Below are positions 1 to 18,582 of a stretch of 32,000 nt of DNA, one piece after another. Source of the DNA: Pyrobaculum aerophilum str. IM2. GTDB taxonomy: Archaea; Thermoproteota; Thermoprotei; Thermoproteales; Thermoproteaceae. The position numbers were made by a program, and so were the translations under genes. The stretch covers positions 2,100,001-2,132,000 of the forward strand of contig NC_003364.1 of assembly GCF_000007225.1 (NCBI RefSeq), in the 5' to 3' direction. Position 1 is the first letter of the stretch. Each line of letters starts with the position of its first letter. Under the pieces are notes generated by a model. That model had not been told where the DNA came from. It ran no database searches and saw only the letters and a list, made by a program, of their open reading frames with translations.

Positions 1-7
1 AAACGTC

Positions 8-298
8 TTGTCTTCCCTGAGAGGCCTCAAGGGGTATGTTGTTTATACAGGCCACGGCGGGAGAGAGCCCGTGGAGGAGTTCGTGGAGAGAATCAGCGCC
101 AGTTTTAAAAAGCTCACTGAAAAATACGTGGAGTGTCTTGGCGAGAAAGTGCCCTACAGAATAGCTCTTTGCGCCAGGGGAGGCGGGGACGTCTTAAGGC
201 TGTCAGAAGAGGGAATTGCTTTTGTAAAATACCTGGCAGAAAACGGCTACGCTAAGATTGTCAACACGTTTCCTTACACAGTCAAGCCCACGTATTGA
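8..298 (+). CDS. hypothetical protein, possibly 5'-truncated by window edge
   Basis: 96-aa ORF with TTG start; frame stays open back to nt 2; no recognisable motif; 3' end overlaps convergent ORF 274-639 by 25 nt. Confidence 0.35.
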   Translation: MSSLRGLKGYVVYTGHGGREPVEEFVERISASFKKLTEKYVECLGEKVPYRIALCARGGGDVLRLSEEGIAFVKYLAENGYAKIVNTFPYTVKPTY

Positions 299-639
299 AG
301 GACTTCGTCTAGCTGACAACGGAAGAGGTGGCTGGGGCTGTCGGGATCGTCCGTGGAGCCGAAGCCGGGGATGTAGTCGCACCTGCTGGCCAGGGCCTTC
401 GCCACCTCCCTCTCACACAGCGGAAGCACTACGGCATATAGAGCCGCGCAGTTTAAGAAGTCGACGTGCCACCTCTTTTTAACAGGCCGGTTTAAATGCC
501 GAGTAACTCTCTTGAGGCAGGACTTTCCACAAGAGCCCACATATGCGTATACGCCGCTTTTTATTACAAATTTTGCCGCCACGTGAGGATCGCAGAGGAA
601 AAAGACCACATAGCTTTTAAAACACTTTGTATGCGACAT
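274..639 (-). CDS. DUF123-like small protein (GIY-YIG superfamily)
   Basis: GVYAYVGSCGKSCLKRVTRHLNRPVKKRWHVDFL matches my recollection of the DUF123 signature (G-Y-Y-VGS...R-RH...K-WHiDyL). Confidence 0.55.
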   Translation of the reverse strand: MSHTKCFKSYVVFFLCDPHVAAKFVIKSGVYAYVGSCGKSCLKRVTRHLNRPVKKRWHVDFLNCAALYAVVLPLCEREVAKALASRCDYIPGFGSTDDPDSPSHLFRCQLDEVLQYVGLTV

Positions 640-669
640 GTGCGATGAGGAGCCGATGGCTGGCGCAAC

Positions 670-1419
670 TCATGGCGTTAAAGCTTGGCGGGTTCTGAGC
701 CTCCTCTTTACCTCCTCCACGAGGCGCGGGAGCACCTCCCCCGCCCTCCCCTGAATGAATACATCTGCTATTGGCGTTATGGCGGAGGGCTCGACGTTTA
801 TTTCCACAACCCTCGCCCCGGCCTCTTTAGCTATCCGCGGGATATACGCCGCGGGGTATACCACGCCTGAGGTGCCGACGACTAGCAAGACGTCTGAAAC
901 TGAAGCCAGCTCCACGGCGGCTCTCCAAGCCTCTTGAGGCAACGGCTCTCCAAACCAAACGACATCCGGCCTCAACAGCCCACCGCATTTTCTGCACAAG
1001 GGGGGCACCTCCTCCACTGGCTTGTCCAATATATACACAGAACCGCATTTTACACACCGCGCACGCCAAATAGAGCCGTGTAACTCAACCACCAGCCTGC
1101 TCCCAGCCCTTTGGTGCAAGCCGTCAACGTTCTGAGTTATGACGCCCCTCACCACGCCCATGGCTTCAAGCTCGGCGATGGCATAATGGCCAGGGCTAGG
1201 CCTTGCGTTGTAAATAACCTCCTGGCGCCATTTATACCACCGCCACACTAGCGCCGGATCTCTCGCAAAAGCCTCCGGCGTGGCCAGCTCCTCGGGCTTA
1301 TACCTCTCCCACAAGCCCCCCGGCCCTCTGAACGTAGGAACGCCGCTTTCGGCGGAGATACCCGCGCCGGTGAAAACTACACAATGACGAGAAGAGGCCA
1401 ATAAGTCTGCAACGTTCAT
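670..1419 (-). CDS. cobB: NAD-dependent protein deacylase, Sir2/CobB family
   Basis: [18 protein letters not shown]-binding motif, QNVDGLH, catalytic ELHGS, Zn ribbon CVKCG...CRKCG; 249 aa is a typical length. Confidence 0.9.
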
Positions 1420-1469
1420 AAATACACCTCACATATTTGTTTATAAGTAATGAGCCAGGCGATTAGGAT
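1402..1469. repeat. direct repeat DR1, left copy (68 bp)
   Basis: Hand alignment with 4043-4107 gives ~61 identical positions and one 3-nt indel; covers Sir2 codons 1-6, its TATA box and adjacent sequence. Confidence 0.85.
1440..1446 (-). promoter_or_regulatory. TATA-like box (TTATAAA on minus strand) for Sir2
   Basis: Centre about 24 nt upstream of the ATG at 1419, consistent with a leaderless archaeal transcript. Confidence 0.45.
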
Positions 1470-1628
1470 ACGCTACGTCCTCCCCCCTAATAGTTCCTAT
1501 CCACGTCGACGAATACAATGGGCCAGATATACGACTCGTCCATCCTCCAGCCTGTTAGTGCCCCGCCCCTTTTGAGACTGCGTTTTGGTATAACTCCTCC
1601 GCTTGCTAGGCATTATAAGAGGGCCAAG

Positions 1629-1865
1629 TTATGCCGTTTTGTCATTGTCATGTATTTTTCTCTTTACTAAACAGAATCGTGTTCTAATTGAACAAAAATG
1701 ATTGGGTTTAATAACAAAGGTTTGAACCGGGGTGAAAACGTCTTGTCTATTAGAAACGTCAAAGCCTAGTTCCATACGGCGGTAGTTTAACAAAACGGCC
1801 CGCTGTTTAGTTAATTTAACCAAACCGCGGGCAGTGTGGTTGCGTAATATTTCCGCTTTTTCCAT
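1629..1865 (-). CDS. hypothetical protein
   Basis: 78-aa ATG ORF inside the islet; no motif recognised. Confidence 0.3.
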   Translation of the reverse strand: MEKAEILRNHTARGLVKLTKQRAVLLNYRRMELGFDVSNRQDVFTPVQTFVIKPNHFCSIRTRFCLVKRKIHDNDKTA

Positions 1866-2030
1866 TTCTTTCTCCGCTTATTTTCCGGTTATCTTTTGCC
1901 CGCAGTGTGCGCAAGCTTATAAACCTCACCAAGGGGGATCTATACGCCTTTACGGGATTTGAAAGTATCTTACGGGGCGTGTGAATGCTGTGTTTGTCTT
2001 GTCCATACCTAAGTATAAGTTTGCAACATC

Positions 2031-2046
2031 TCTACTTTAAGTAGAT
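2031..2046 (+). promoter_or_regulatory. palindromic operator-like 16-mer TCTACTTTAAGTAGAT followed by an A/T-rich box
   Basis: Identical 16-mer recurs at 2846-2861; ends 33 nt before the ORF start at 2079; nested in a larger inverted repeat TCTCTACTT(2028-2036)/AAGTAGAGA(2058-2066). Confidence 0.5.
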
Positions 2047-2078
2047 TAAGTTTTTAAGTAGAGAAGAAAGGCGTTGTC

Positions 2079-2543
2079 ATGTTGGCGATTCACTTATTAC
2101 TAGTGCTGGCAGTTGTTACGCATATGGGGTTGCCCAGTGCTACTGTAAACACTTGTAGCTTTAACGACGTTGTCTACGTGATATCAGGACAATATACCTG
2201 GAAGAACTATTACATGCCCTATGCTATTGATGCGTGGATAGGGGATGCGGTTACTAACGTGCCCGAGGTTTATTATACGTATTACTGGGACAACAATTCC
2301 AAAGTCCTCAATGTGATCTTCTTTGATGCCGGACCTGAAAGCGGCTATGTCACTTATAAAGTATACTTTACGACACAGGGCGCCTGTCCCACAGAACCTC
2401 CAAAAGGAAAGGAGATAGTGTTAAAGGCGTATCGGGCTAGAGTTGTCGAGAATGTTGAGCCGGTGAGCACTAAGCCGCAGTCTATTACATCCACTGAGAG
2501 GATTTTGCCAGCGTATAAAGCTCAGATTAAGGTTACAAATTAG
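2079..2543 (+). CDS. secreted hypothetical protein
   Basis: 154 aa; N-terminal hydrophobic signal-like segment MLAIHLLLVLAVVTHMG; Tyr/Thr-rich body; no known motif. Confidence 0.55.
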   Translation: MLAIHLLLVLAVVTHMGLPSATVNTCSFNDVVYVISGQYTWKNYYMPYAIDAWIGDAVTNVPEVYYTYYWDNNSKVLNVIFFDAGPESGYVTYKVYFTTQGACPTEPPKGKEIVLKAYRARVVENVEPVSTKPQSITSTERILPAYKAQIKVTN

Positions 2544-2548
2544 CCCGG

Positions 2549-2564
2549 TTTTTTAGTATTTTTT
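2549..2564 (+). terminator. oligo-T terminator candidate
   Basis: Two T6 runs (2549-2554, 2559-2564) start 6 nt after the stop at 2541-2543. Confidence 0.4.
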
Positions 2565-2844
2565 ATCCTATAAGGGATTTCATAGATTCTAACTAAGATG
2601 GGGGAATTTACTTTATTCTCAGTAACTGTGGGCGAATTGAAGCGTGGAATGGCGGGAGTTGTCAATGAGTGGATACAAAGGGGATGCGGGTTATGTGCAC
2701 GCAGCCCGTTGCCAGCATAATGGCCGCATCTTCACGCCCCTGAGGTCTCTTCAATTAATGCGACATACTGCCGCTTTAGGAAGATATTGTGTAGCGCCTT
2801 CTAAGTGTATGGCACCGCAACGCCGATTTCAGTAGCCAAATCCC

Positions 2845-2861
2845 ATCTACTTTAAGTAGAT
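2845..2861 (+). promoter_or_regulatory. palindromic operator-like 17-mer ATCTACTT-T-AAGTAGAT followed by a TTTTTTAT box
   Basis: Perfect 8-bp arms; ends 32 nt before the GTG start at 2893, the same spacing as the site at 2031-2046. Confidence 0.5.
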
Positions 2862-2892
2862 CAATTTTTTATCCAAGCGATATTATTACGTC

Positions 2893-3480
2893 GTGAAGTT
2901 ATTTATCATCGTTATAGTTAGCGTTATTGTTATTGTTTTTATCGCATACTCGCTTATAGACAGATACTACGGCGTATGTATCTCGCACGGATCCGGCTAT
3001 GACTGTGTTGTTTACAGAGGATTTAGCGAAGTGGGCAGAGTGGCTCTATTTCAAAACGGCACGGTGGACTTTAAGTGGGGCACGGTATCGGTACGCGGCC
3101 CCTTGAGGTGTGTAGGTAACTGCACGCCTGGTAGCCTGACCGCCATTGGGATACGCGGTATCTACGTGGTTGAGGGCGGGGGGACAACCAGCGTCGTCTT
3201 CTACCACTTAAATGCCTACCTTGGTTACATATTGGCAGTGCCCGTTGCACTATACATATACGCCTTAGCCCTAATTGCAAGCGGCGCTCTTGAGAAGATG
3301 TACCGCGGGCTTAAAATTGTCGTCGTAGCTGGGACAGTTGCAACAGCCCTCTCCATATTCACTACGCCGCTAGAGCCAATCTCAGCGGCGGCGCTGTCAA
3401 TATGTGGTCTGTCTACCACGGCTCTGGGGGTATATGCCGTTAGGCGGGTGAGGCAATGGGTAATGTCGATGTTGACGTAG
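2893..3480 (+). CDS. membrane protein, hypothetical
   Basis: 195 aa, GTG start; N-terminal TM (LFIIVIVSVIVIVFIAY), Cys-containing central domain, about 3 C-terminal hydrophobic segments. Confidence 0.55.
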   Translation: MKLFIIVIVSVIVIVFIAYSLIDRYYGVCISHGSGYDCVVYRGFSEVGRVALFQNGTVDFKWGTVSVRGPLRCVGNCTPGSLTAIGIRGIYVVEGGGTTSVVFYHLNAYLGYILAVPVALYIYALALIASGALEKMYRGLKIVVVAGTVATALSIFTTPLEPISAAALSICGLSTTALGVYAVRRVRQWVMSMLT

Positions 3481-3695
3481 TTATCAGATTGCTCTCCCTC
3501 CTCCTACAGAGGCCTATGAGGAAGACTGAATTATGGAGGCTCAGTAAGCTTAACTATTACAGTTTCGAGAGGTACCTCCTAATATTAATAGAGAGGGGAC
3601 TAGTGGCTGAGAGAGACGGGCTTTATCACTTGACTGAGAAGGGGACTAGAGAGACTTTGGCAATTTTAGAATGGTTGCGCAGAGTCCTCTACTAA
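3456..3695 (+). CDS. small winged-helix (wHTH) DNA-binding protein
   Basis: 79 aa; pattern LLSLLLQRPMRKTELWRLSKLNYYSFERYLLILIERGLVAERDGLYHLTEKG is typical of MarR/PadR-like wHTH; overlaps the upstream ORF by 25 nt. Confidence 0.55.
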   Translation: MGNVDVDVVIRLLSLLLQRPMRKTELWRLSKLNYYSFERYLLILIERGLVAERDGLYHLTEKGTRETLAILEWLRRVLY

Positions 3696-4042
3696 TGGCT
3701 TACACTTGCTGAGATCTATAAAGTGTATTTAAACGTCGGACGGTTGAGTTAGCCTTAACACAGAGATAAGTAGCGACGCAGAAAAGGTGGCTGAGACGCC
3801 CGTAGTGGCTGTAACAGGCGGAGTGTTTATCGCCACGCTAGACGCCGTGATAACCATCGTCATCCCGCCGTTGGGTTGTATCCCGCATTACATAGGAGTA
3901 ATGAGCCACCCGCCAAGTCTTAACTTCTATAAACTCCTCTCTCCGCGTGAAGAGGCCCTTTCAGGCGCCCGTCGAGGTATCTGTTAACCCTCCTACTCTC
4001 CAGGTTTACGATGAATGAGTCCTCTTGTCATCGGCGTTTTAT

Positions 4043-4107
4043 TAAGTCTGCAACGTTCATAAATATACCTCATGTTGTTTATAAGTGATGAGCCAGGCGA
4101 TTAGGAT
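4043..4107. repeat. direct repeat DR1, right copy (65 bp)
   Basis: Aligns with 1402-1469; retains a decoy TATA plus ATG (4060) followed by only 10 codons (MNVADLIKRR*). Confidence 0.85.
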
Positions 4108-4133
4108 GCATGACGCACCACGACCTCCTCTGA
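4085..4133 (+). ncRNA. candidate C/D box sRNA
   Basis: GTGATGA (C box, 4085-4091), 11-12 nt spacer, AGGA (weak D'), ATGACGC (weak C', 4110-4116), 13-nt spacer, CTGA (D box, 4130-4133); ~49 nt total; internal boxes are degenerate. Confidence 0.3.
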
Positions 4134-4210
4134 CTTTATGCAAAGGAGAAGTGGTAGCGGCACGCACTCTTGGTGAGTAACTTTTTAATAACTATAGCGG
4201 GGTTTGCGTC

Positions 4211-5875
4211 ATGAGAAAGGTGGCAGTGTTAACCTTAATACTGGCGTTTATCCTACTGGCCGCCGGGTGGCAGACTTATACTATAAAAGTTGCCTCTGTT
4301 GAAATAAACGCACTTGCCGTGGGGCCGTCAGGAGGGTCCGTCTTGCCGATAAAAGTGACTTTGCTCACGCCCGGCGACGGCCGCGCCTATGTGGCAGGCG
4401 TACCAGAGGCGGGACAGGGGTTTGGCCCCTCGGCGCAAATCGCCCTTTATGTGGCATCGCGCCTCTCGGGAGTCCCCTACACGAATTACACAGCACTGCT
4501 TAGAGTGCTCGCCAGCGATGCCCAAGTCGGCGGGCCTTCTGCCAGCGGCTATATAACAGTGGCGCTGTACGCCTTAATGAACGGCCTTCAGCTACGGAAT
4601 GATACAGCCATGACGGGGATTATACTCCCCGACGGCCTCATAGGGCCTGTGGGCGGGGTGTCTCAAAAAGTCAGCGCCGCCGCTGCGCAGGGAATTAAAA
4701 CGGCGCTTGTGCCAATAGGCGAGGCCCCAAGCGGCATTAGGGGGATAAGGGTCATTGAAATAGGCACTGTGGAGGACGCTATTTATTACCTCACGGGCCG
4801 GAGGATTGAAACCCCGCCTCCCACTGCCGTTGACGACTCTACCTTTAAGACAATTTCGAGGGACTTACTCAACGCGATATACAGCTATTACAACCAGACA
4901 GTGGGAAGGGGGTATGTAGACACAGCGACAATAGAGCGGCTGAAATCGCAGGGCTATTATTACGCCGCAGCCTCTCTAATCTACCAAGGCCTCGTCAATT
5001 ATTACAGAGAACAAGCGTCGTTTTCTAGGAGGGTTTACCGCAATTTATACGACCAGGCGTTACAAATGGCGAAAAACGCCGAGGCTGATTTAGCCCAAAT
5101 CCCAATAACTATAAACAACATTGACCTCGTGGTGGCCAGTTATACGAGGATATACGAAGTTTATTTAGAAGCCAACTCCACTAATCCAGACGCGGGAATG
5201 ATGTACGCCAGGGCAATTACGTTGAAATCTTGGATAGACGAGGCGCGGAAAATGGCCTATGGGCCCGTTGTAAATGAGACGGGCCTCGCCGAAGTGGCGA
5301 AGATGTACCTCGACTACGCAAAGACCATGTATGCGTATCTCGAGACGACTTACGGCGTCACTCTTGGCGACTACGCCACAGCCGTGCAATTAGCGGAGAG
5401 CCTTTACCAACGCGGCTTGTACCTAGCGTCCATGGCTAACTCCATTGAGATAATCGCCGAATCTGCCTCCGCGCTCATGTCCTCGGCGCCTGATAAATAC
5501 CTACAAGTGGCCAGGGAAAGGGCTTTGATAAATATGGCCAGAGCTGCCGCGTGCGGCTACACCAACACTCTGCCGCTGAGCTACTTACAATTCGGCGACT
5601 ACTTCAGCGCTCAGGGCAACGCGGCGCAAAACGCTCTTGCCTACTATATTATGGCCTCTATATATTCCACGGCCATGGGCGACGTGGTGTGTAACGCCAA
5701 GGGAGGGAGAATAATCCCAAGGGCGAATTTCTCAGCGGAAACTCAAGCCCCAACCTCCGCCCCCGTCACGACGCCCATGGAGTCTGTTGCAGAACAGGGG
5801 GAAAAAAGCTTGTGGATTCCCCTGGTTTTAGTCTTGTTGGCCGCGGCGGCTTTGATATACGCCTCTAGACGGTAA
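4211..5875 (+). CDS. membrane-anchored S16 (Lon C-terminal proteolytic domain) family peptidase
   Basis: VGGPSASGY...AMTGIILPDGLIGPVGGVSQKVSAAAAQG resembles the Lon Ser-Lys dyad region (GPSAG...AMTGE...GG..eK); N-terminal signal/TM and C-terminal TM (LWIPLVLVLLAAAALIY). Confidence 0.75.
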   Translation: MRKVAVLTLILAFILLAAGWQTYTIKVASVEINALAVGPSGGSVLPIKVTLLTPGDGRAYVAGVPEAGQGFGPSAQIALYVASRLSGVPYTNYTALLRVLASDAQVGGPSASGYITVALYALMNGLQLRNDTAMTGIILPDGLIGPVGGVSQKVSAAAAQGIKTALVPIGEAPSGIRGIRVIEIGTVEDAIYYLTGRRIETPPPTAVDDSTFKTISRDLLNAIYSYYNQTVGRGYVDTATIERLKSQGYYYAAASLIYQGLVNYYREQASFSRRVYRNLYDQALQMAKNAEADLAQIPITINNIDLVVASYTRIYEVYLEANSTNPDAGMMYARAITLKSWIDEARKMAYGPVVNETGLAEVAKMYLDYAKTMYAYLETTYGVTLGDYATAVQLAESLYQRGLYLASMANSIEIIAESASALMSSAPDKYLQVARERALINMARAAACGYTNTLPLSYLQFGDYFSAQGNAAQNALAYYIMASIYSTAMGDVVCNAKGGRIIPRANFSAETQAPTSAPVTTPMESVAEQGEKSLWIPLVLVLLAAAALIYASRR

Positions 5876-6161
5876 CAACGTCTCTATTAAACGCCGGTTT
5901 TTTTCTCCGCCTCTTCCTCCCGCCCTTTGGCAAGAGCGCCGCGGTGAAAAAAGCAACTGGGATTAGATACTCCCAGTAGGGGGCGTACATATATATCGCC
6001 GCAATAATTCTCTCCACTACATCGCCGTTAACTAATAGGGCTGGTACCGAGAGTAGTATCAGGCCGGCAATTGCTAAGCCTGTGAGAACTCTATCCCTCA
6101 CCCTCCTTAGCGCCAGCGCCGTGATTACTGCTATCACTGTTAAGGCGATTAGCCCAAACAT
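5865..6161 (-). CDS. small membrane protein
   Basis: 98 aa, about 3 hydrophobic segments, basic tail GGRKRRRKKP. Confidence 0.45.
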   Translation of the reverse strand: MFGLIALTVIAVITALALRRVRDRVLTGLAIAGLILLSVPALLVNGDVVERIIAAIYMYAPYWEYLIPVAFFTAALLPKGGRKRRRKKPAFNRDVVTV

Positions 6162-6233
6162 ATGGGGGGCCTACCACGGCAGTTTTATTTCTATTTGTTA
6201 TTATAGGTCCTGGCTTTAAATAAGGCCCCGCGG

Positions 6234-6815
6234 TTGAAACGGGAGGAATCGGCACTGCACAGCTCCGGTGTATTGTTTAAATACTGTCAGAATTGTACAG
6301 CCGTGTGGTTCCTCCCGTTGACTAGAAACGAGGCTGTAGAGGCCATTAAAAAGGCGTATTCTATAGCGCAAGAATACGCGAGGAAAATTGGAGGAAGGCT
6401 GGAGGTAATACAGCCAAAGCATATATACGGCGACTCGGCTGATAAATTCGGCTACTCGTTGCAAATCGGGAGGATAACAGTAAACCTCCCTCCAGCCGCC
6501 GTGTTGATTGTCTGGGGCTTTTACAACGCCGATGAATATCTGGATTTCGTTAGATTTATTCAAGACGGACGCGTCTTCGAGTGGTTTGTAGAGCCCATTG
6601 CCTACTACCCCGAGAGAGTCGGCGTATGGGCAGAGGAGCCGTTAGTATTCAGAAATGTTATTTACATCGACGTCCACACCACCTCTACGGAGCAACGGGA
6701 TAGAGTTTACGGGTGGCCGCTGGGCTATTTCATATCACCTCTCCAGCCGCCCCAAGAGGTGAGGCCTCCCAAGAGGCGTAGAGTGGAGAGGAGGCAGAAG
6801 GGCGGGCAGTCTTGA
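6234..6815 (+). CDS. hypothetical protein coupled to the serine recombinase
   Basis: 193 aa, TTG start; its stop overlaps the recombinase start (TTGA, 6812-6815); basic C-terminal tail PPKRRRVERRQKGG; preferred over antisense ORF 6216-6563 because of this coupling. Confidence 0.45.
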   Translation: MKREESALHSSGVLFKYCQNCTAVWFLPLTRNEAVEAIKKAYSIAQEYARKIGGRLEVIQPKHIYGDSADKFGYSLQIGRITVNLPPAAVLIVWGFYNADEYLDFVRFIQDGRVFEWFVEPIAYYPERVGVWAEEPLVFRNVIYIDVHTTSTEQRDRVYGWPLGYFISPLQPPQEVRPPKRRRVERRQKGGQS

Positions 6816-7567
6816 TAACTGCAGTAACGTACATAAGAGTCTCCACGGAGGAGCAGGACCCGGAAAATCAACGGGTGTTTTTAGAGAGGTGGGCCGGGGA
6901 GAGGGGGATTTACATTGTTAAGCACTATGTCGACGTGGGGGTGTCCGGAGCGACGGAGCCTTGGGAGAGGCCGGCCTTTAGACAAATGGCCTCTGAGGTG
7001 GACAAGCTGGAGCCGAGGCCGCGGGTGTTGCTCGTGTACGAAATTTCGAGGCTAGTGCGCTCTTTCCAAGAGCTCTTTACTCTGCTAGACGTGGTGGAGA
7101 ACAGACTGGGTCTCGTGGTAGTCTCAGCCTCGGAGAGGGAGCAGGCCCTGCAGAACCTCGACGGAGTTTATAGACAGTTCTTACGGGCAGTTTTGGCCTT
7201 TGTGGCGACTATGGAGAGAGAGTTTATAAGACAGAGGACTAAGACGGCGCTTGAGAGGGCGCGCCTCCAGGGGAAGGTGTGGAACGTCGCCGAGAAGCGG
7301 CGGGATTTGACGCAGGCCGTAGTGGAGATGTACCTATCGGGGGCCTCGCTGAGGGAGACCGCCAGGGCCTTCGGCCTCTCACTGTATGAAGTAAGGCGAA
7401 TTCTGTCAAACGCGGGGGTGTACAGGCCAAGCCCCTACACGTGCCCCCGTTGCTTCTCAAAAATGAAAGTAGCTGAGAGGACGGCTAAAATCTCCAACGG
7501 GAAGTACACAGTGGTGGAGAGGCTCTATTGTTATAATTGCGGCTACGAGGAGATCAGGGAGGGATAA
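6812..7567 (+). CDS. serine recombinase (resolvase/invertase family) with C-terminal HTH and Zn ribbon
   Basis: N-terminal AVTYIRVSTEEQDPENQ (catalytic Ser motif), YEISRLVRS, HTH SLRETARAFGLSLYEVRRIL, CPRC...CYNCG. Confidence 0.8.
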   Translation: MITAVTYIRVSTEEQDPENQRVFLERWAGERGIYIVKHYVDVGVSGATEPWERPAFRQMASEVDKLEPRPRVLLVYEISRLVRSFQELFTLLDVVENRLGLVVVSASEREQALQNLDGVYRQFLRAVLAFVATMEREFIRQRTKTALERARLQGKVWNVAEKRRDLTQAVVEMYLSGASLRETARAFGLSLYEVRRILSNAGVYRPSPYTCPRCFSKMKVAERTAKISNGKYTVVERLYCYNCGYEEIREG

Positions 7568-7641
7568 TCAGTTCTTAAAGGACTCTTCACGCCTCTGCGA
7601 GGTGAAGCGTCTTCATCTACTGTTATACCCGGGCTGGTTTA

Positions 7642-8187
7642 TTAACATATCTTTTCTATGTACTTTGAAATGTCGTGTCCCCTTTTCTTAAACTCTCTGA
7701 GATCTTCGTAGCGGCTCCACGGGTAAGAGATCCACACCCACTCCTCTATTCTCTCGGCGTAATAGTCGGGGGTGAGCTGGCTTGTTGTTTTTAAGTGTAG
7801 CACAGCTGTCTTTATTTGGGCCGCGCCTATTAAGTCGAGGAGGTTTTTGGCCAACATTAGCGTGTGTCCCGTGTCCGCCACCTCGTCCACCACAAGTACT
7901 TTCCTATCTCGAATAACCCCTGGCTCTATGCTGTGGTACAACAGGGGCCTCTCAGCCCGCCTCTGTGCCAAGCCCCAGTACTTGACGCCCATGGAGATTA
8001 CGTCGTCAACGCCAAGAACATCGCTTATAATTCTAGCGGGCACTAACCCGCCGCGGGAGATGGCCACAATGACCTCAGGCTTATACCCGTCGCCCTCTAT
8101 CCTCCTAGCCAAAGCCTCGCTTAGAGCTATCCCCTCGGCCCAGGAGATAAACCTGACTTTAACCCCGCCAACTTCAACTATAGCCAT
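7642..8187 (-). CDS. purine (hypoxanthine/guanine-type) phosphoribosyltransferase
   Basis: PRPP-binding motif KVLVVDEVADTGHTL; 181 aa. Confidence 0.8.
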   Translation of the reverse strand: MAIVEVGGVKVRFISWAEGIALSEALARRIEGDGYKPEVIVAISRGGLVPARIISDVLGVDDVISMGVKYWGLAQRRAERPLLYHSIEPGVIRDRKVLVVDEVADTGHTLMLAKNLLDLIGAAQIKTAVLHLKTTSQLTPDYYAERIEEWVWISYPWSRYEDLREFKKRGHDISKYIEKIC

Positions 8188-8234
8188 GTGAATTCATATT
8201 CAGGGAGTTAAAATATACAATTGCGTAGAAATTG

Positions 8235-8954
8235 CTATCCGATTTTAATATAGCGCCCGGAGGCGTTGTAGAGTGGCGTTCCAATTTTTAATTTAGACGT
8301 ATCAACGACCGTATTAATTACAAAGACACAGTTCTTCAAAGTGGGGCCTAGTACCTCGGTTTTCACCCCCACTTCTAACGGCACAACAGATATCCCTCGC
8401 GCGTCGCGGTGTTCAGATTTTATATAGATGCCGTCGGAAGCGAATAAGAAGGCAGAGTGGTTTAGTTCCGCGACTGGTTTACGAACGACGTAAGGCGGCA
8501 GGCTAAAATCATAAATAAAAGATAGGTAGCCAATTCCCCTTTCGGGATAGGCAACTAACACGGCTCGGTACCCATACGCCTCGTCTGTAAATGTCCTTAG
8601 ACCTTTTTTCACGCCACACAGACGTTTGAGGCCTGTTTCAAACGGCGCCTCTGGGTCAGGTTGGCCGGTAAACACCCGGCCTATAAATACAACAGCTGTC
8701 ATATTCCCCACGCGGCCAGCGGTTACGCATTTAAAATCGCTGGCGCTTATAGGCGGCGGCACTTTAATAACACCGCTATACTCACAAGGGCCATATACTA
8801 CTCCAGAAATATTTTCTACAGACATACATGCAACATTAAAATTTACATAACAAATTTTTTCATCCATAAAAAACATATATAAATAGTTAATGAAAAATGA
8901 AATAAAAATTAAAATAAAAAATAAAATTATCACTAATAAAAATAATCTATTCAT
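8235..8954 (-). CDS. N-terminally anchored hypothetical protein
   Basis: 239 aa; extremely A/T-rich 5' end encoding a TM segment (LFLLVIILFFILIFISFFINYLYMFF); no motif. Confidence 0.5.
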   Translation of the reverse strand: MNRLFLLVIILFFILIFISFFINYLYMFFMDEKICYVNFNVACMSVENISGVVYGPCEYSGVIKVPPPISASDFKCVTAGRVGNMTAVVFIGRVFTGQPDPEAPFETGLKRLCGVKKGLRTFTDEAYGYRAVLVAYPERGIGYLSFIYDFSLPPYVVRKPVAELNHSAFLFASDGIYIKSEHRDARGISVVPLEVGVKTEVLGPTLKNCVFVINTVVDTSKLKIGTPLYNASGRYIKIG

Positions 8955-9192
8955 AGTTGTAGAAAGAGGCTAAAACCCATGTGGCGTTTATCTCTACGGC
9001 TTCGGCCTCAACGCCAGCCTTAAGCAAGGCGTTAAGTATAGGCTTAATGTCGGTCTTGCTTATAACACAAGTGAAGTTGACGATGCCGTCATAACAAGTC
9101 AAAGGTTCGGAGGTTTTAATCACGTCGAAATGAGCCAAGGCGGCGATCTTTCCCCTGTGGTTACCGACGTAGTTTATAACTACCCGAGGCAA
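8947..9192 (-). CDS. hypothetical protein
   Basis: 81 aa, TTG start, 8-nt overlap with the downstream ORF; no motif. Confidence 0.3.
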   Translation of the reverse strand: MPRVVINYVGNHRGKIAALAHFDVIKTSEPLTCYDGIVNFTCVISKTDIKPILNALLKAGVEAEAVEINATWVLASFYNYE

Positions 9193-9480
9193 ATGCTCAC
9201 CAGAGCCAGCTTAGGCCAACTGATAAGCGGCTACTGCCACGAACACAGCTACTGACATTATATCTAACCGCCGTTTTCCGATCATATGTATTAAGACAAT
9301 CGGTATTTTTATTTTTTATTTCTACAAATTAATTAATGTAAAGACCGGGGTTATGCGAGGGATTTTCAGCGCCCGCCACTGCTGGGCAGGCTCTCGCCAC
9401 CGCGTCGGCGTGGGTTCAACTCGTCATTCGCACTATTTGCAGTGAGTGTATTTAAATTTTAGGTGTTGTGGACTGTTTAG

Positions 9481-11455: not shown

Positions 11456-12275
11456 GGTCAGTTCAATGTGTCAGATTTATAACAATTGTTTTTATAGGGA
11501 CGTGATTGACATAACGCTTTCTATAGCGGCGGCAGTTGCCTACGGCGTTGCGCCTCTAGTATACAGACCTGCTTTACAATGTACTAATCAGTTCAGAGCA
11601 ATGAGCGTGTTCTCCACTTATTCAATTCTCCTGGGCCTGCTCCTCCCCTGGGACGGCGCCTCTCTTGACGGCGTTTTATCGGCGGCCGCCGCCGCTTTAT
11701 TTGGCGGCGTGTTGGGATCATGGCTTTATGTAACAGCCGTTAAAATAGGGGGCGCTGCCGTGGGCAATATAAGTAGCTCGTTGTATGTAGTGTTGTTGCC
11801 CATCGCCGCAGGGAAGCTGGCCTTAATACCTGCTGCGCTGTTGGTGTTGTTAGGATCGGCAATTGCCTCTTCTTACGACGTGGTTGCTAAACGCGGGGCA
11901 TTTTACGGCGTAGTAGCCGCCTTCGTGTGGACGGGCTCTATTATGCTCTACGCGTCAGCTGTCCGCGCGCTAGGCCCGGGAGGGGCTTTGTTCACAAGAG
12001 GAGTAATAGTGCTCCTCGCCACATTGCTGTTGGGCTTTAACAAGCCCCTCTGTGAGGCGTGGCGCCTGGTAGTTGGGGGGTTTATAGACACCTTCATTGG
12101 GTTTGGGGCATATACTTCCGCTATTTTTTACGGCGACTATGTAAGCGCCACGCTTATTATGTCCTCCTATCCCCTAATTTCAGCGCTTTTAGAAAAGCCG
12201 TTTATGTGGAGGAGAGTTGCCGGGGCTTTGGCGGCAGTGGCCGGCCTCGTGTTAGTGGCTTTGACAAATAAATAA
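11454..12275 (+). CDS. polytopic membrane protein, DMT/EamA-like permease
   Basis: 273 aa, about 9-10 hydrophobic segments, Gly/Ala-rich; assignment by architecture only. Confidence 0.4.
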
Positions 12276-13529: not shown

Positions 13530-14735
13530 GTGAGAATTGTCTTAAACGCCCCTCCTGGCTTCGGCAAGTCGAGGCTAATTGCGAGATTGGCGTCGGGTAG
13601 AATATCTCTAGTGTTTGTAAGGAGCCATCTAGAGGGTCTGCAAATGGCCCAGTACGTCTCTGAGTTTGGAGGCGTGCCGGGGTTATTATTTGGGCGGAAG
13701 TCTCTGTGTCCTTTCGGGGCCGAGAACGCGGCGCAGTGTTTATGGCTTAGAGAGAGCGGGGCGTGCAAGGCGAAGTCCCGGAGGCCGCCCACATTAATTT
13801 TCGATATTGACGAGCTTTATAAAGCGGGGGTGTGTCCCTATGAGGCGCTACACGCCGAGGGCAGGGAGAAGAACGTAGTAATTCTGCCCATAGCCTATTT
13901 GTCAAAAGTCTCTAACATATCTGCAGTGGCTGATCTTTTTGAAAACGTAGAGTTCGTGGCGTTAGACGAGGCGCATAATTTACTCTCAGTGGTGGAGGTA
14001 AGCGACAGCGAGCTTTACTCTAAGAGATATTGCCAAGAAGAGGACGGCAGGCTTTGGTGTTTAGTACTGCCGCTAGCCGCCGAGGTGGTAAGGGGGGTGA
14101 GATTTATAATTGCGGCCAGCGCCTCTGTGGTTAGGTATTTCTCCGACTTTTTCACGCATTTTCTCAACGCCAAGTTTATAGAAATTAAAACCTTGCCGGG
14201 CGCGGAGAATTTAGAGGTTGAGCACATGCCGTTGAAAATCCGCTATACTACTCGTTTAAAAAAAGACTACGTAGAGGCGGTATTGGACAAGATAAGGGAG
14301 GTATATAAAGAATACAGGCGTGTAGTCGTCTACCTGCCTAATAAAGAACTCGCCAGTTATTACGCAAATAAACTATTAGACCTCCCAGTGTCAGACAAGC
14401 CGCTGGGCGATATAGATCACGTAATTGTCAGTTATTTCGGTTCTCCAATTTCTGAGGGAGTTAACTTAAACGTCAAGGCGGGGGTCTTAGTGGGATTCCC
14501 CATACCAAATGTCAAGAGCAAAGAGCTGTGGCTAAAAGTAAGGCTAATCCAGAGGCTGGGCTTTGACGGCTATAAATACGGAGTTCTATTCACCGCGGTA
14601 AATCACGTGGTACAAGCCGTGGGCAGGGTGTTAAGAGGCTTGGAAAGAGAGAGGAAGTACATCCTCCTTATAGACGACAGATTTGCCGAGTACAAGAGGC
14701 TCCTGCCTGAATATCTTTCAAAGGCGGTTAAGTAG
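13530..14735 (+). CDS. compact XPD/Rad3-like SF2 helicase with Fe-S cysteines
   Basis: Walker A APPGFGKS, DEAH box (LDEAHNL), motif VI QAVGRVLRG, four Cys C-x9-C-x8-C-x22-C between motifs I and II; only 401 aa. Confidence 0.7.
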   Translation: MRIVLNAPPGFGKSRLIARLASGRISLVFVRSHLEGLQMAQYVSEFGGVPGLLFGRKSLCPFGAENAAQCLWLRESGACKAKSRRPPTLIFDIDELYKAGVCPYEALHAEGREKNVVILPIAYLSKVSNISAVADLFENVEFVALDEAHNLLSVVEVSDSELYSKRYCQEEDGRLWCLVLPLAAEVVRGVRFIIAASASVVRYFSDFFTHFLNAKFIEIKTLPGAENLEVEHMPLKIRYTTRLKKDYVEAVLDKIREVYKEYRRVVVYLPNKELASYYANKLLDLPVSDKPLGDIDHVIVSYFGSPISEGVNLNVKAGVLVGFPIPNVKSKELWLKVRLIQRLGFDGYKYGVLFTAVNHVVQAVGRVLRGLERERKYILLIDDRFAEYKRLLPEYLSKAVK

Positions 14736-14756: not shown

Positions 14757-15638
14757 GTGTTAGAACTGGCTTTGTTATTGCTACTGCTGGCTTTTACGTT
14801 TAATGACGGCGTATTTATTGGAATTGGGAAAACAGGGCCTGTGGAAATACCGCTGGATAGGCATATAGTAATAACAGGCCCGACTAGAAGCGGCAAGACT
14901 AAACTCGCGAAGAAAATCGTGGCGAGGTCGGGGTTGCCGGCTCTTGTGCTTGATTGGCACGGCGAGTACGAAGGGCTATCAATAGATGCAAGAAAAATAA
15001 AAATTGACATTGAGAAATTTGATAAAAAATTACTAGTAGAGATTTTGGGCCTCTCTCTTAATCTAAACGAGCCAAGTATTTACTTCCTTTATAGGGCAAT
15101 ACGTAACCAAAAACTACGAGACATTAAAGACGTAGTTGCCGCGTTAGAGGACTTTTTAGTGGCCACGAGGAGCGAGGTGGAGATGAAGGCTGCAATTGCC
15201 AGAAGGCTTGAATACGTAATGGACGTGTTTGAAAAAGGCATTATACCGGTGGAGAAAATTTTTAAATATAAAAAGACTATTATTATTAATTTATCTAAAT
15301 TGAAATTATATGAAGAAAAAATATTAATATCACTATTTATATTATCATCTTTATATAATTACTTATTTGAGAAAGGGCCGTCTAAAAAAGTCGACAGGCT
15401 ACTCGTAGTAGACGAGGCGCAGAATATTTTAAAACGCGGCGATGTTGTGAAATACTTGGTTTTTGAAAGCGCCAAGTACGGCCTGAGATTAGTGCTTGTG
15501 AGTAACGAAATGCCCCCAGAGGATATACTAGTCCATGCAACTCTAGTGTTAACTCGCCCTCATTACGCATACAGTTTAAAAACTAAGAGGGCGGCGGTGA
15601 TCCGTGACAACACAATAAAAGAGTTATGGATAATATAG
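14757..15638 (+). CDS. mini HerA/DUF87-type P-loop ATPase
   Basis: Walker A GPTRSGKT, LDWHGEYEG (HerA-like D-HGEY), Walker B LLVVDEAQN; 293 aa. Confidence 0.7.
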   Translation: MLELALLLLLLAFTFNDGVFIGIGKTGPVEIPLDRHIVITGPTRSGKTKLAKKIVARSGLPALVLDWHGEYEGLSIDARKIKIDIEKFDKKLLVEILGLSLNLNEPSIYFLYRAIRNQKLRDIKDVVAALEDFLVATRSEVEMKAAIARRLEYVMDVFEKGIIPVEKIFKYKKTIIINLSKLKLYEEKILISLFILSSLYNYLFEKGPSKKVDRLLVVDEAQNILKRGDVVKYLVFESAKYGLRLVLVSNEMPPEDILVHATLVLTRPHYAYSLKTKRAAVIRDNTIKELWII

Positions 15639-15820
15639 AAAAAATATTGAGGGCTCTGGGTTTGAAAAAAGATGAAATTACTTCTTGTGATATCTATATT
15701 AACTATTTTATGCAATATTTAGCTAGTATTGAGAGGAAAATCGCTGAGTTAAAAAGCAAAGTTGATTACCTAGAGGAAAAATGCATTAAAAATGGAGAAG
15801 AAACCGATAACTCAGGCTAG
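15626..15820 (+). CDS. small coiled-coil protein; 3' end lies in DR2
   Basis: 64 aa; overlaps the upstream ORF by 13 nt; the C-terminal VDYLEEKCIKN is encoded by the repeat. Confidence 0.45.
   Translation: MDNIEKILRALGLKKDEITSCDIYINYFMQYLASIERKIAELKSKVDYLEEKCIKNGEETDNSG
15762..15810. repeat. direct repeat DR2, left copy (49 bp)
   Basis: 43/49 identical to 27107-27155 by hand alignment; the first 23 nt are perfect (TTGATTACCTAGAGGAAAAATGC). Confidence 0.8.
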
Positions 15821-15900
15821 TATAAAAAGGGAAAATCTCCGAGTTAACCTGTCGCGCCCTCCGTCATATCATGTCCCTGTAGTGTTGAATGGCTATATTG

Positions 15901-16004
15901 CCGTCCTCGAAAAATTTCTCAGAGGCTAAAAGCCAAGCTTTCCGACCTGGATAATTCAGGAAATAAAGCCGAAAAATTAGCGTTCAAGAATTCTTTCAGA
16001 ACGG
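15901..16004. repeat. ~105-bp dyad-symmetric module, copy C (most degenerate)
   Basis: CCGTCCTCGA-N5-TTCTCAGAG ... CCTGGATAATTCAGG ... TTCAAGAA-N5-TCAGAACGG; same architecture and spacing as copies A and B. Confidence 0.65.
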
Positions 16005-16033
16005 CATATCCGCAGGATCGAGCAGGAGTTAGG

Positions 16034-16046
16034 AAAAAAGGGGGGG
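16034..16046 (-). terminator. C7-T6 tract directly after the TnpB-like stop
   Basis: Minus strand reads CCCCCCCTTTTTT starting 2 nt after the TAA at 16048-16050. Confidence 0.3.
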
Positions 16047-16047
16047 T

Positions 16048-16950
16048 TTAAATTAATTCGGAGAACCGCCTCTGCGCCCACAGCGCCAACACTTTCTCCC
16101 TCGGCGCCTCAAAGCCGCACTGCTGACACCTCAGCTTCCTATCCGACAGCTCCCCCATTTCTATCCCACACCGGGGGCACACCGCGGAGTACAGCCTGTC
16201 CTCACGGTACGGCACTCCGTACCATGAGGCCAGCTCTCTAATCCGCCTCCTCAGCCTCTCCGCGTTGAGGCGGATTCCTCTGTCTGAGACCTGGCGGGGG
16301 TCTGGCACGCTTACCACAATCACCGCCTTGTTGCGCCTCGCCTCCATTACTAGCTTCTTCGCCGTTTCATCTTCAAACTGGCGCAAGATGTTTTTCACGC
16401 GTCTGCGGAGCGCCGCTACTCTTTCACAGTGGTCCTCCTCCCCGCTCGCACAGAGGGCCTCAAGGCGGGAGATTTCCCTCTGTATGCGGCCAATTTTCCC
16501 CAAGTCCGGCCTGTAGACGCCTTTTTGCAGTACGCGCTCCCCATCTACAGTCGCCCACACCACGCCGTTGTGTAGAGCGATGACATCAACTGCGGTTAGG
16601 CGGGTAGGCTGGTAGGGCTCCGTCTCTTTGGCGAATACCAGCGCCACGTTAAAGGTGAATAAGTCAGACCGCCCAGTGGGGCCCACCCAGGCGTAGGCCT
16701 CCTCCAGCCGGCCGCCCTCCTTCAGCCTCTGGAGTATCCCCCTCACTTCTGCCCTCCTCAGCCTTATTACAATTGCGCCTTCGCCCTGTCCAATTCTGAT
16801 CTCGCCCCCTTGGAGATCGACAGAGAACTGATCTCCGCGGAGTGCCACCCGCTTGTTGATACCCCCTTGCGCTCCCAGAAACTCCACCAGCTTCTCTGAC
16901 GGAATCTCCTCCACTTTTCTCCGTATAAGCACTGTTCTATACGCCATCAT
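16048..16950 (-). CDS. compact TnpB/IS605-OrfB-like protein with non-canonical RuvC residues
   Basis: LTAVDVIALHNG (RuvC-I-like Asp), helical RRRVKNILRQFEDETAKKLV, ELASWYGVPYREDRLYSAVCPRCG-x13-CQQCG Zn finger in the family-typical position; 300 aa. Confidence 0.6.
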   Translation of the reverse strand: MMAYRTVLIRRKVEEIPSEKLVEFLGAQGGINKRVALRGDQFSVDLQGGEIRIGQGEGAIVIRLRRAEVRGILQRLKEGGRLEEAYAWVGPTGRSDLFTFNVALVFAKETEPYQPTRLTAVDVIALHNGVVWATVDGERVLQKGVYRPDLGKIGRIQREISRLEALCASGEEDHCERVAALRRRVKNILRQFEDETAKKLVMEARRNKAVIVVSVPDPRQVSDRGIRLNAERLRRRIRELASWYGVPYREDRLYSAVCPRCGIEMGELSDRKLRCQQCGFEAPREKVLALWAQRRFSELI

Positions 16951-16998
16951 GACTCTTCCTCCGCACTCCCAATTTTGAACAATTTTTCACCGCATGCT

Positions 16999-17101
16999 TT
17001 CCTGAATCCGGTTCTGAGCGGCGGTTTTTGCGCCTTAGCGTCCTGAAAAATTCAGGAAACAGAGGCGGGAAAAACCGGCTCAGGAGGGGGCTCAGGAGAC
17101 G
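16999..17101. repeat. ~105-bp dyad-symmetric module, copy A
   Basis: TTCCTGAA-N5-TTCTGAG ... CCTGAAAAATTCAGG ... CTCAGGAG-N5-TCAGGAGACG; right arm overlaps the ATPase stop codon (17092-17094). Confidence 0.7.
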
Positions 17102-18582
17102 TCCTCTGGCCGGGCCAGCCGGATGAAGATCGGCGCCCTCCCGCCGAACCGGACAACGGCGTGGCGCTCCCCCGGTAGCGACTCGGTGGCCACCCTCTCC
17201 AGCACGGAGCGGTCTATCTGCACGGCGCGGGACACCCTCTCCAGCTGCTCCGGCGCTATCGCCAGCACGGCCTTGGTGTCCGAGTTGGCGATGATGGTGG
17301 AGAGCGGCCCGAACTCCTGGACGTCCTGGCTTATGGCCACGAGCCTGACCCCGAACTTCCTGAGGCCGCGCCACGCCAGCGCCAGCGCCTCTAAGTTGCG
17401 GAGCAGCAGGTGGGCCTCGTCTATGTAGATCTCCAGCTTCGGCCCGCAGGACGGCCTGGGGCACGCCCGCTTGGCCCACAGCGCGTATGCGAACAGCCAC
17501 GAGACGAGCCTCATGACGGAGGCGGGGCCCTCGTCCCCGTACGTGGTCACCGCCACCGCGCCAGACGTGGCGAGCCCCGCGGGCCTGGCCCGGGCCAGGG
17601 ACTTCAACCGGCCGTAGATGGAGTCGACGGCCATGGCGCTGAGGGGGTCCCGGATCCTCGCGAGCGCGCCGACCAGCCCGGCGAGGTCGGCGGAGCCCCC
17701 GGCCCTCTCCAGGGCGTTGAGGATCACCGTGTAGTGCACGTCGTGCACCGCCACGCCGGCGGCCCTCAGTATGTCCAGGAGGAGGTCGGCGTCTGAGGGG
17801 CCCTCCTCGCCGCTGTCGGCCGAGAATGCCATCTCCGGTATGTGTTTCCTGGCGTCGATCACGGCCGTGGCGACGTCGGCCCAGTGCCCGTGGGGATCTA
17901 TGGCCACCACTAGCCTCCCCAGCCGCCTGGCCTGTGCGGCCTGGGCCTTCGCCCACGTGGTCTTGCCAGATCCCGTCTTGCCGATCACCACGGCGTGGGG
18001 GCTCTCCAGCTGGTAGGGATCCATGCAGACCTCCCTCCCCCTGTCGTCCCAGCCCAGCCTGTACGCAGAGGGGCCGCACTGGAAGGGCAACAGCATGAAG
18101 GCATAGGGGGTGAACTCCGCGAGGTCGAAGGTCAGGGCGTCCACGGTGCTGGGCCTCCCCACGGTGAAGGCTAAGGGCCTCCCGTCCACCACCCCCGCAA
18201 CCGCGAAGGCCTCCTCCCTCAGGTGGACGATCCTGTGCCTCACCGCCGCCACCTCCTCGGCCCGCATCATGCGGACTCGGCTGAGGAGGACCGCCGCCAT
18301 GTGCTCCTGCCGGAGGGCCCGCTTCGTGATCCTCTGCAGGAAGCCCCTGTTGGGCGCCCAGGTCACCAGCGCCCTGCTGACCATCAGCTGGGAGACCTTC
18401 GCGATCGAGTGCACCTCCTCGGGGCGCAGGAGGGCGAAGAGGGAGTCGTTGGCCTCCAGGCCCCGCCCGGCGGCTGGCGTCCCCGCGTCCGACGCCAGGA
18501 GGAGGAGGTAGGCCAGGGCCCCGAGGACGGCGCCGGGGAGGGAGGCGGTGGCGGCGTGCACCTGGGATCGCCTGGCGGGCAT
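17092..18582 (-). CDS. HerA/VirB4-like (DUF87-type) ATPase with N-terminal hydrophobic anchor
   Basis: Walker A GKTGSGKT, AIDPHGHW, Walker B EIYIDEAHLL; N-terminal LPGAVLGALAYLLLLA; alternative start at Met67 (18384) forms a TGATG stop-start overlap with the upstream ORF. Confidence 0.8.
   Translation of the reverse strand: MPARRSQVHAATASLPGAVLGALAYLLLLASDAGTPAAGRGLEANDSLFALLRPEEVHSIAKVSQLMVSRALVTWAPNRGFLQRITKRALRQEHMAAVLLSRVRMMRAEEVAAVRHRIVHLREEAFAVAGVVDGRPLAFTVGRPSTVDALTFDLAEFTPYAFMLLPFQCGPSAYRLGWDDRGREVCMDPYQLESPHAVVIGKTGSGKTTWAKAQAAQARRLGRLVVAIDPHGHWADVATAVIDARKHIPEMAFSADSGEEGPSDADLLLDILRAAGVAVHDVHYTVILNALERAGGSADLAGLVGALARIRDPLSAMAVDSIYGRLKSLARARPAGLATSGAVAVTTYGDEGPASVMRLVSWLFAYALWAKRACPRPSCGPKLEIYIDEAHLLLRNLEALALAWRGLRKFGVRLVAISQDVQEFGPLSTIIANSDTKAVLAIAPEQLERVSRAVQIDRSVLERVATESLPGERHAVVRFGGRAPIFIRLARPEDVS

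Follow-up and report, generated by a model that had tools for sequence, protein, structure and literature searches.

In a survey of mobile elements integrated in archaeal genomes, insertions were reported at tRNA genes, in intergenic regions or at the 3′ ends of protein genes; for integrated elements of crenarchaea, it gives attachment (att) sites 29–69 bp in length, after She et al. 2002 (PMC6563490). Here we describe an islet of 2.6 kb in Pyrobaculum aerophilum str. IM2, which interrupts the start region (promoter and 5′ end) of the gene for a Sir2-family deacetylase and is enclosed by two copies of a direct repeat, the 65–68 nt of which fall inside the crenarchaeal att range. It lies in a stretch of 32,000 nt (NC_003364.1, positions 2,100,001–2,132,000), which is called the window and whose coordinates are used throughout. 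We regard the islet as what remains of an integrated mobile element, generally familiar in type but with an unusual target, a very small size and an orphan cargo, and provides a cleanly delimited case, with empty sites, of gene acquisition at a promoter and 5′ end in a hyperthermophilic crenarchaeon.

The closest described systems each share part of this architecture. Tyrosine integrase elements of the SSV and pNOB8 types resemble the islet in their att-length direct repeats, in the single att copy at the empty site in relatives, in deviant GC content, and in carrying orphan genes and small DNA-binding proteins. They differ in that the islet lacks an integrase, either intact or as int(N) and int(C) parts at its borders, targets a promoter with the opening codons of a protein-coding gene, with no tRNA gene involved, and comprises only 2.6 kb without replication or structural genes. 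CIME-like elements (cis-mobilisable or decayed integrative elements), known from streptococcal integrative and conjugative elements (ICEs), have retained their att sites and lost the recombination module. Similarly, the islet has att-like repeats around a short, cargo-only segment without an integrase, and shows signs of internal decay, in a truncated 549-aa gene; however, no cognate autonomous element or integrase was identified for it, and related cassettes are located on different host sequences. The bacterial dusA islands are documented cases of insertion into the start of a gene in which the island brings a substitute 5′ end and promoter, while the displaced original persists as a remnant (PMC4482086). 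In these islands of Proteobacteria, as in the islet, the working 5′ end adjoins the gene, an orphan 5′ end lies at the far border and the direct repeats are imperfect, whereas, unlike the islet, they carry their own DusA-specific tyrosine integrase beside a semi-conserved att of 21 bp and extend over tens of kb (PMC4482086); no cognate integrase lies by the att-like copies of the islet. Finally, the “dark matter” islands of Pyrobaculum contain pairs of secreted and membrane proteins (arCOG07691, arCOG09771 and arCOG09761; PMC4158269). The islet resembles these in its type of gene content, in having a small beta-rich secreted protein with a membrane protein, a large secreted protein, and a distribution restricted to Pyrobaculum, and neither its locus nor its repeat is described in that paper (PMC4158269).

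As for transposons and insertion sequences, the islet has no transposase and no terminal inverted repeats, and its 65-nt duplication is too long. All transposase target-site duplications known to us are far shorter than 65–68 nt. Cassettes moved by serine recombinases offer no closer parallel, with no element-specific enzyme of this class linked to the insertion, and, to our knowledge, serine recombinases leave no long direct repeats.

The site of insertion is defined by four features:

670–1419, minus strand: Sir2-family deacetylase gene, the target gene (Pfam SIR2, 5.9e-57), with its first 18 nt inside the left repeat copy
1402–1469: left repeat copy, attL-like, 68 nt, with Sir2 codons 1–6, the ATG at 1419 and a TATA box at 1440–1446
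4043–4107: right repeat copy, attR-like, 65 nt, with an ATG at 4060 and a TATA box at 4078–4084
4211–5875, plus strand: Lon_C-domain (S16) protease-like gene (Pfam Lon_C, 1.6e-11), the right-hand neighbour of the insertion site

A preliminary description of the sequence had proposed a direct repeat of 65–68 bp with ~61 identities and one 3-nt indel, and both a repeat search of the window and an alignment bear this out. The copies comprise a 30-nt block (1402–1431 against 4043–4072; 29/30 identities, 97%) and a 33-nt block (1437–1469 against 4075–4107; 32/33, 97%), separated by 5 nt on the left and 2 nt on the right, which accounts for the single 3-nt indel; in total there are ~61–62 identities over 65–68 nt, a difference of ~6%. 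As had also been noted, the left copy carries the Sir2 TATA box and ATG with the first six codons inside it, and upstream of the ATG it holds 50 nt including the TATA box. The right copy has the same TATA box and an ATG, and from 4060 to 4028 on the minus strand reads ATG AAC GTT GCA GAC TTA ATA AAA CGC CGA TGA, the ten codons of MNVADLIKRR* that had been described. The distance from TATA box to ATG is 27 nt in the left copy and 24 nt in the right, compared with 26–27 nt in Sir2 orthologues, and the duplicated promoter constitutes a natural experiment on archaeal TATA–start spacing and on antisense transcription into the islet. Past the right edge, repeat similarity is not significant (p=0.6), and past the left edge it amounts to just an out-of-register 12-mer (p=0.015, doubtful); comparison of Sir2 with the right arm of the islet by tblastn gave nothing past the six codons. 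A weak third match to the repeat within that arm (3888–3920; 64% over 33 nt), which shares AGTAATGAGCCA with the left copy, is probably due to chance (E ~0.09 for the 12-mer).

Each half of the repeat, allowing at most 3 mismatches, is present in exactly two copies in the 32-kb window, against 0 expected from 100 shuffles. The 33-mer occurs in 0/103 non-P. aerophilum loci and twice in every P. aerophilum locus, the repeat blocks being confined to P. aerophilum-type loci among the 113 compared, and no significant match to the repeat was found in related cassettes or elsewhere in the window. The preliminary description would have been undermined by a repeat that proved to be a common intergenic motif, and the idea that it is such a motif, a promoter motif or a chance match, with ordinary chromosomal DNA in between, does find an echo in its 13-nt core, GATGAGCCAGGCG, which is kept in the Sir2 spacers of 4/6 other species, with 1–2 substitutions in the rest, and points to a functional promoter-proximal element. 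With two copies where none is expected, no more in 32 kb or in 103 other loci, and empty sites in relatives, we consider this explanation practically negligible.

Evidence for insertion comes from the orthologous loci. The Lon-like protein has 61 homologues, one 100% identical (P. aerophilum) and 60 distributed across Pyrobaculum and Thermoproteus; the loci compared, among the matches listed, are those encoding Lon-like homologues at 74–80% identity, together with one (L003) from a Sir2 scan. At nine loci from other Pyrobaculum (L003 and L091–L098), which include P. neutrophilum (CP001014), a multi-species Pyrobaculum cluster and several metagenome-assembled genomes, the Sir2 and Lon-like genes are divergent neighbours, and the 113–169 nt between them contain the repeat region once. 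Here the Sir2 start runs directly into the sequence found to the right of 4107 in the window, which is the empty site that the preliminary description had predicted, and the closest non-aerophilum locus found (Lon 80% identical) is also empty. The Sir2–Lon spacer is hardly alignable between species; its ancestral order is Sir2 ATG, TATA, GTGATGAGCCAGGCG, CACGACCTCCxCTGA, GGTGAGTAACTTTTT and Lon ATG. The right repeat copy and its right flank are colinear with this single spacer, and the left copy and its left flank with Sir2. Since both copies are colinear with the ancestral arrangement, the 2,573 nt between them are an insertion that duplicated ~65 nt of its target. The islet is an insertion with target duplication, and its empty site is present in relatives; the suggestion that insertion at the 5′ end of a gene had produced a target duplication or an att pair is supported by the empty sites and the colinear flanks.

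Recombination between 65-nt direct repeats would leave exactly the empty site observed, and so the islet and both repeats might instead have been ancestral to Pyrobaculum and lost elsewhere. We regard this as very improbable, because many independent losses would be needed, every non-aerophilum locus, the closest included, being empty. In addition, the GC content of the islet is deviant, at 46% compared with 56% and 53% in the flanks, the cassette it carries occurs at other loci in other species, and the repeat copies differ by just ~6%, while the spacer can hardly be aligned between species.

Our favoured reading, which we judge rather probable, is that the islet is a recombinase-free, partly decayed integrative element that entered the Sir2 promoter and 5′ end through one crossover. 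Foreign DNA would have entered the P. aerophilum lineage through a single (Campbell-type) crossover, in which a segment of ~65 nt on a circular DNA recombined with the matching Sir2 promoter and 5′ end in the chromosome. The repeat copies would then represent attL and attR, in the arrangement attL–islet–attR. The copy adjoining Sir2 would keep the complete promoter and first six codons, so that Sir2 stays expressed, and the other copy would become an orphan promoter and start codon reading ten codons into the islet. Strand exchange might have been performed by an integrase acting in trans, by an integrase since lost, or by host recombination on short homology, and the cargo would be a self-contained, selectively maintained module in which two promoters with the same operator serve genes for secreted, membrane and winged helix-turn-helix (wHTH) proteins. 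The circular intermediate, the crossover mechanism and any current mobility are what we infer here.

The main rival to this is a duplication that arose de novo during insertion. Illegitimate recombination or template switching would have joined linear foreign DNA into the chromosome at a break or stall, and gap filling would have copied ~65 nt of the target on either side, giving a very long target-site duplication; neither an att site nor a circle would be involved. Although we think it unlikely, several observations agree with it: no recombinase, attP or circular form was found, the 549-aa gene is truncated near the left junction, as expected of a randomly captured fragment, and the other contexts of the cassette are without the Sir2 repeat. 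It is weakened by the length of the duplication, 65 nt being far outside the range of the transposase and casposase target-site duplications known to us, and by the copied segment, which just suffices, as promoter and start, to keep Sir2 fully functional.

The age of the islet relative to its flanks bears on these readings as well. The window was compared with two P. aerophilum loci of another lineage, L118 and L123 (NMUF01000012 and NMUE01000003), which have the same Sir2–islet–Lon arrangement at 98.4–98.6% identity. In Sir2, Lon and the resolvase gene beyond it, 32/749 synonymous sites differ (4.3%), compared with 3/307 synonymous sites in three islet genes and 11/1,305 positions in the non-coding arms and spacer of the islet. 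The islet total of 14/1,612 sites (0.87%) is 4–5 fold less diverged than the flanks (Fisher p 1.4e-7). The density of differences shifts in the intervals 1341–1470 (left) and 4042–4108 (right), within ~60–130 nt of the repeats, the flanks themselves having only ~1 difference per 50 nt. This lower divergence implies that the islet has a more recent common ancestor than the surrounding genes, and that the limits of the young tract coincide, exactly or nearly, with the repeats. Two histories would give this pattern: a second entry of one element into the same site, or exchange of the islet through recombination in the repeats or directly beside them. The low divergence of the islet points to spread after the split of the two P. 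aerophilum lineages.

Whichever way the duplication arose, ordinary homologous gene flow with crossovers in the flanks could in principle also produce low divergence, the islet having been an immobile fossil since one ancient insertion. Every contig encoding an identical Sir2 or an identical 154-aa islet protein carries the islet, the repeats are invariant in all of the ten closest contigs (identity with the window ≥99.77% across 11.4 kb), the P. aerophilum-type contigs yielded no empty allele, and among ten close strains the islet is less diverse than the flanks, a difference that is not significant (p 0.09). These observations are what such gene flow would give, but we find it quite improbable, as crossovers in the flanks should scatter further out than the ~60–130 nt within which both tract ends lie. 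Duplication de novo is likewise strained by an islet 4–5 fold younger than its flanks with boundaries at the repeats, which would demand a second identical event or later exchange.

Between the repeats, the islet contains the following:

1698–1850, plus strand: decayed 3′ end (~50 codons) of a 549-aa secreted-protein gene, from weak but concordant blastn and tblastn matches
2031–2056, plus strand: palindrome TCTACTTTAAGTAGA followed by a T-rich TATA-like box, ~25–45 nt upstream of the 154-aa gene; candidate operator and promoter, identified as a repeat family
2079–2543, plus strand: open reading frame (ORF) of the 154-aa protein, beta-rich after a signal-like helix at the N-terminus
2846–2871, plus strand: second palindrome of the same repeat family with a TATA-like box, upstream of the 195-aa gene
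2893–3480, plus strand: ORF of the 195-aa membrane protein, with an N-terminal helix, a beta-rich middle with conserved Cys, and 3–4 C-terminal helices
3456–3695, plus strand: gene for a 79-aa winged-helix DNA-binding protein (Pfam HTH_45, 1.1e-11), overlapping the end of the 195-aa gene by 25 nt
3696–4042: right arm of the islet, 347 nt, containing a 66-aa ORF (3787–3987, plus strand)

Three of these genes form a cassette under purifying selection. Between P. aerophilum and the related cassette at locus L099, the ratio of nonsynonymous to synonymous substitution rates (dN/dS) is 0.085 for the 154-aa gene, 0.18 for the 195-aa gene and 0.044 for the wHTH gene, low values which imply that all three are maintained by selection. 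The 154-aa protein has no match in Pfam, PHROGs, PADLOC or NCBIfam, and its AlphaFold2 model is unusable (predicted local distance difference test, pLDDT, 40); that of the 195-aa protein (pLDDT 45) is usable for secondary structure only. The 79-aa protein also matches the NCBIfam Sso10a_fam (1.4e-12), below the family cutoff. The 154-aa and 195-aa genes are separated by a spacer of 349 nt. In both transcription units the T-rich box that follows TCTACTTTAAGTAGA lies ~25 nt before the start codon, and the 16-nt core of the palindrome hardly varies, each copy having at most 1 base different from the majority sequence at 8 promoters from 4 cassette lineages. The 79-aa wHTH protein is most likely the regulator that would bind this operator upstream of both units.

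The leftmost 228 nt of the islet have no match. In the decayed gene fragment, 1704–1823 aligns with the end of a 543-aa gene at locus L110 (68% over 130 nt; blastn E 1e-4) and with residues 502–523 of the 549-aa protein (11/23 identities; tblastn E 0.12), the gene for which precedes the cassette in Pyrobaculum sp. 3827-6. A 78-aa ORF on the opposite strand (1629–1865, minus), antisense to this fragment, is probably spurious. The gene content given in the preliminary description thus stands as regards the secreted, membrane and wHTH proteins, but not the 78-aa ORF, which is probably no gene. The right arm has no family match, and neither blastn nor tblastx found anything like it at the other loci. 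The islet lacks tRNA genes, inverted repeats at its termini and terminator-like sites; Rfam returned no family in window positions 1–9000, and promoter-like matches were not above chance in a scan that is bacterial in type and of little value for this archaeon.

As had been stated from the first, the islet has no recombinase: its ORFs matched no recombinase, transposase or defence family with any confidence in Pfam, PHROGs, NCBIfam or PADLOC, and a six-frame reading of both arms by eye showed nothing integrase-like, neither intact nor split across the borders. A viral or plasmid origin of the cargo was considered and set aside, there being no credible match in GenBank phages, IMG/VR or PHROGs apart from a weak PHROGs match to the wHTH protein; the islet proteins have no relatives in IMG/VR contigs. 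A defence function was likewise rejected, as PADLOC gave no credible match, only a single weak one to the wHTH protein (E 0.0026).

Relatives of the islet genes were sought elsewhere, as the preliminary description had proposed, and were found at 48–84% identity in other genomic contexts, without the Sir2 repeat. The 195-aa family is tiny, with 4 clusters at 90% among 5.8 billion proteins and 3 representatives at 50% among 1.84 billion, and this orphan gene family moves between Pyrobaculum genomes without a recombinase of its own. In Pyrobaculum sp. 3827-6 (L108, with the same sequence at L099, L100 and L105), the order is 549 aa, 154 aa, 195 aa and wHTH, and the cassette is flanked by two diverged copies of a 69-aa gene, adjoining tRNA-Val. 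The same site is empty in four other genomes, one of P. aerophilum type, where the 69-aa gene is followed directly by an RNase H gene and tRNA-Val. A 72-nt terminal repeat at L099 had been a candidate for a second att-like pair, and was rejected when L108 showed it to be the start of two full, diverged copies of the 69-aa gene (201 nt, 74%). These gene copies show no mosaic pattern that would point to a crossover, and the pair is not comparable to the Sir2 repeat. At L103 the cassette is decaying: the 195-aa gene is interrupted by a stop codon and frameshifts, and the 154-aa gene is inverted. At L107 a cassette of 48% identity has the permuted order 195–wHTH–154, and lies directly upstream of a gene for an EF-Tu-family GTPase.

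At L110, the 543-aa homologue of the large gene is situated between inverted tRNA-Val copies. Three full or partial copies of tRNA-Val(CAC) occur there within 5.5 kb (8952–9010, 11966–12039 and 14324–14395), with a PaRep2b gene between the next two tRNA-Val copies, and the region looks like a repeatedly used integration hotspot.

The GTPase gene at L107 provides a link between these cassettes. At L099, L101, L103 and L108, the spacer between the 154-aa and 195-aa genes contains a fragment of the first ~26 codons of this gene, matching it at 16–17 of 22–23 residues (tblastn E 2e-7 to 5e-6) and at 73–78% of positions over 66–79 nt. Being common to the L099-type cassettes and L107, the junction of the 154-aa gene with the GTPase 5′ end must be older than the split of these cassettes. 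In the L099 type, this junction is followed by the 195-aa and wHTH genes, which is a circular permutation of the L107 order. The 154–GTPase 5′–195 junction would accordingly be that of a circle excised from an L107-like site with two copies of the GTPase 5′ end, as we infer from the gene orders; the L107 contig ends 14 nt upstream of the first operator, and the predicted upstream GTPase 5′ copy would fall outside it. The captured fragment and the permuted order in relatives also tell against duplication de novo at Sir2, in that they suggest recurrent insertion at the 5′ ends of genes.

A broader proposal, which we hold to be doubtful, is that the cassette belongs to a family, present in Pyrobaculum and relatives, of recombinase-free, circularisable modules that re-insert at host genes via a carried promoter and first codons, by short-homology recombination. 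If true, such a module family would never inactivate its target gene, and the Sir2 repeat, the fossil GTPase 5′ fragment and the younger islet would be three snapshots of one still-active process. If captured 5′ fragments do serve as attachment sites, cassettes would have a simple way of moving by short homology, and one open to testing.

Several findings weigh against a single crossover by an integrative element at Sir2. Neither a circular form nor a third copy of the repeat nor a contig bearing attP came to light, and IMG/VR has no exact match to either of the conserved repeat stretches. Among the P. aerophilum contigs examined there is no empty-site allele. The islet contains no recombinase gene or recognisable integrase fragment, though short fragments could escape detection, and no tyrosine integrase occurs among the window ORFs scanned. 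Markers of the native repeat copy conflict, GTGATG in the right copy being the genus consensus and the 27-nt TATA–ATG spacing in the left copy the genus norm. In the P. aerophilum spacer between the 154-aa and 195-aa genes, the GTPase fragment is not statistically detectable (p 0.3–0.8). Lastly, the three contexts of the cassette correspond to three host sequences, the Sir2 5′ end, the GTPase 5′ end and the 69-aa gene, which is awkward for one strict site-specific integrase and better suits homology-driven or sloppy recombination. Taken with the missing integrase, the three host sequences fit either short-homology recombination or an integrase of relaxed specificity, such as that described for pTN3 (PMC5495485, as relayed in PMC8371274). 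The preliminary description had offered a choice between a remnant and an element mobilised in trans, and each receives partial support, the former from the truncated 549-aa gene and the latter from the 4–5 fold lower divergence.

The neighbourhood of the islet includes one further recombinase:

6812–7567, plus strand: small serine recombinase with Resolvase and HTH domains and a C-terminal Cys-rich tail, with an overlapping upstream ORF of 170–193 aa (region 6234–7567)

Located 2.7 kb to the right, it was a candidate for the recombinase of the islet, and was rejected as every empty site has it at the corresponding place. Together with its upstream ORF it adjoins the Lon-like gene at the same position in every Pyrobaculum locus examined (L003 and L091–L098), and it is a genus-wide syntenic gene outside any recent mobile element. 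The DNA directly after it varies, comprising a 491-aa ORF (L003, L091), a 908-aa ORF (L094) or PaREP2 genes (L118). In L118 and L123, the match to the window breaks off abruptly within the DUF123 gene region (~477) and just after the resolvase (~7718), and PaRep2a and PaRep2b genes lie on both sides, giving the Sir2–islet–Lon–resolvase segment other chromosomal surroundings.

Comparison of P. aerophilum with the species of L096 shows a block of ~9 kb that is inverted relative to its flanks (L081 3241–12398; in the window, from left of position 1 to ~8180). It contains a PRTase gene, the resolvase, Lon, (the islet), Sir2, DUF123 and a 134-aa gene, up to tRNA-Asn(GTT); no inverted repeats were found at the breakpoints of this between-species inversion. 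In P. neutrophilum, the inversion is limited to the PRTase segment adjoining the resolvase.

Further right, positions 8820–8960 are very AT-rich (GC ~32%), with A/T runs, and cover the 5′ end of a 239-aa ORF without a family match (8235–8954, minus strand). Upstream of the CTP synthase gene, a non-coding element of 61–65 nt (9366–9430, minus strand) is 88–90% identical between species, compared with ~74–75% for the genes around it. On the minus strand it has an AUGACGA start and a CUGA end, with no Rfam match and no stable fold, and it looks like a C/D-box small RNA.

The stretches 14757–18582 and 25232–27118 contain two genes for HerA/DUF87-type ATPases, a 300-aa ORF with a Cas12f1/TnpB-like TNB domain (16048–16950, minus strand) and a PaRep2b protein (25232–27118). 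From 16.9 to 22.7 kb there are several long, overlapping ORFs on both strands. This part of the window may be a further mobile or repeat-rich region.

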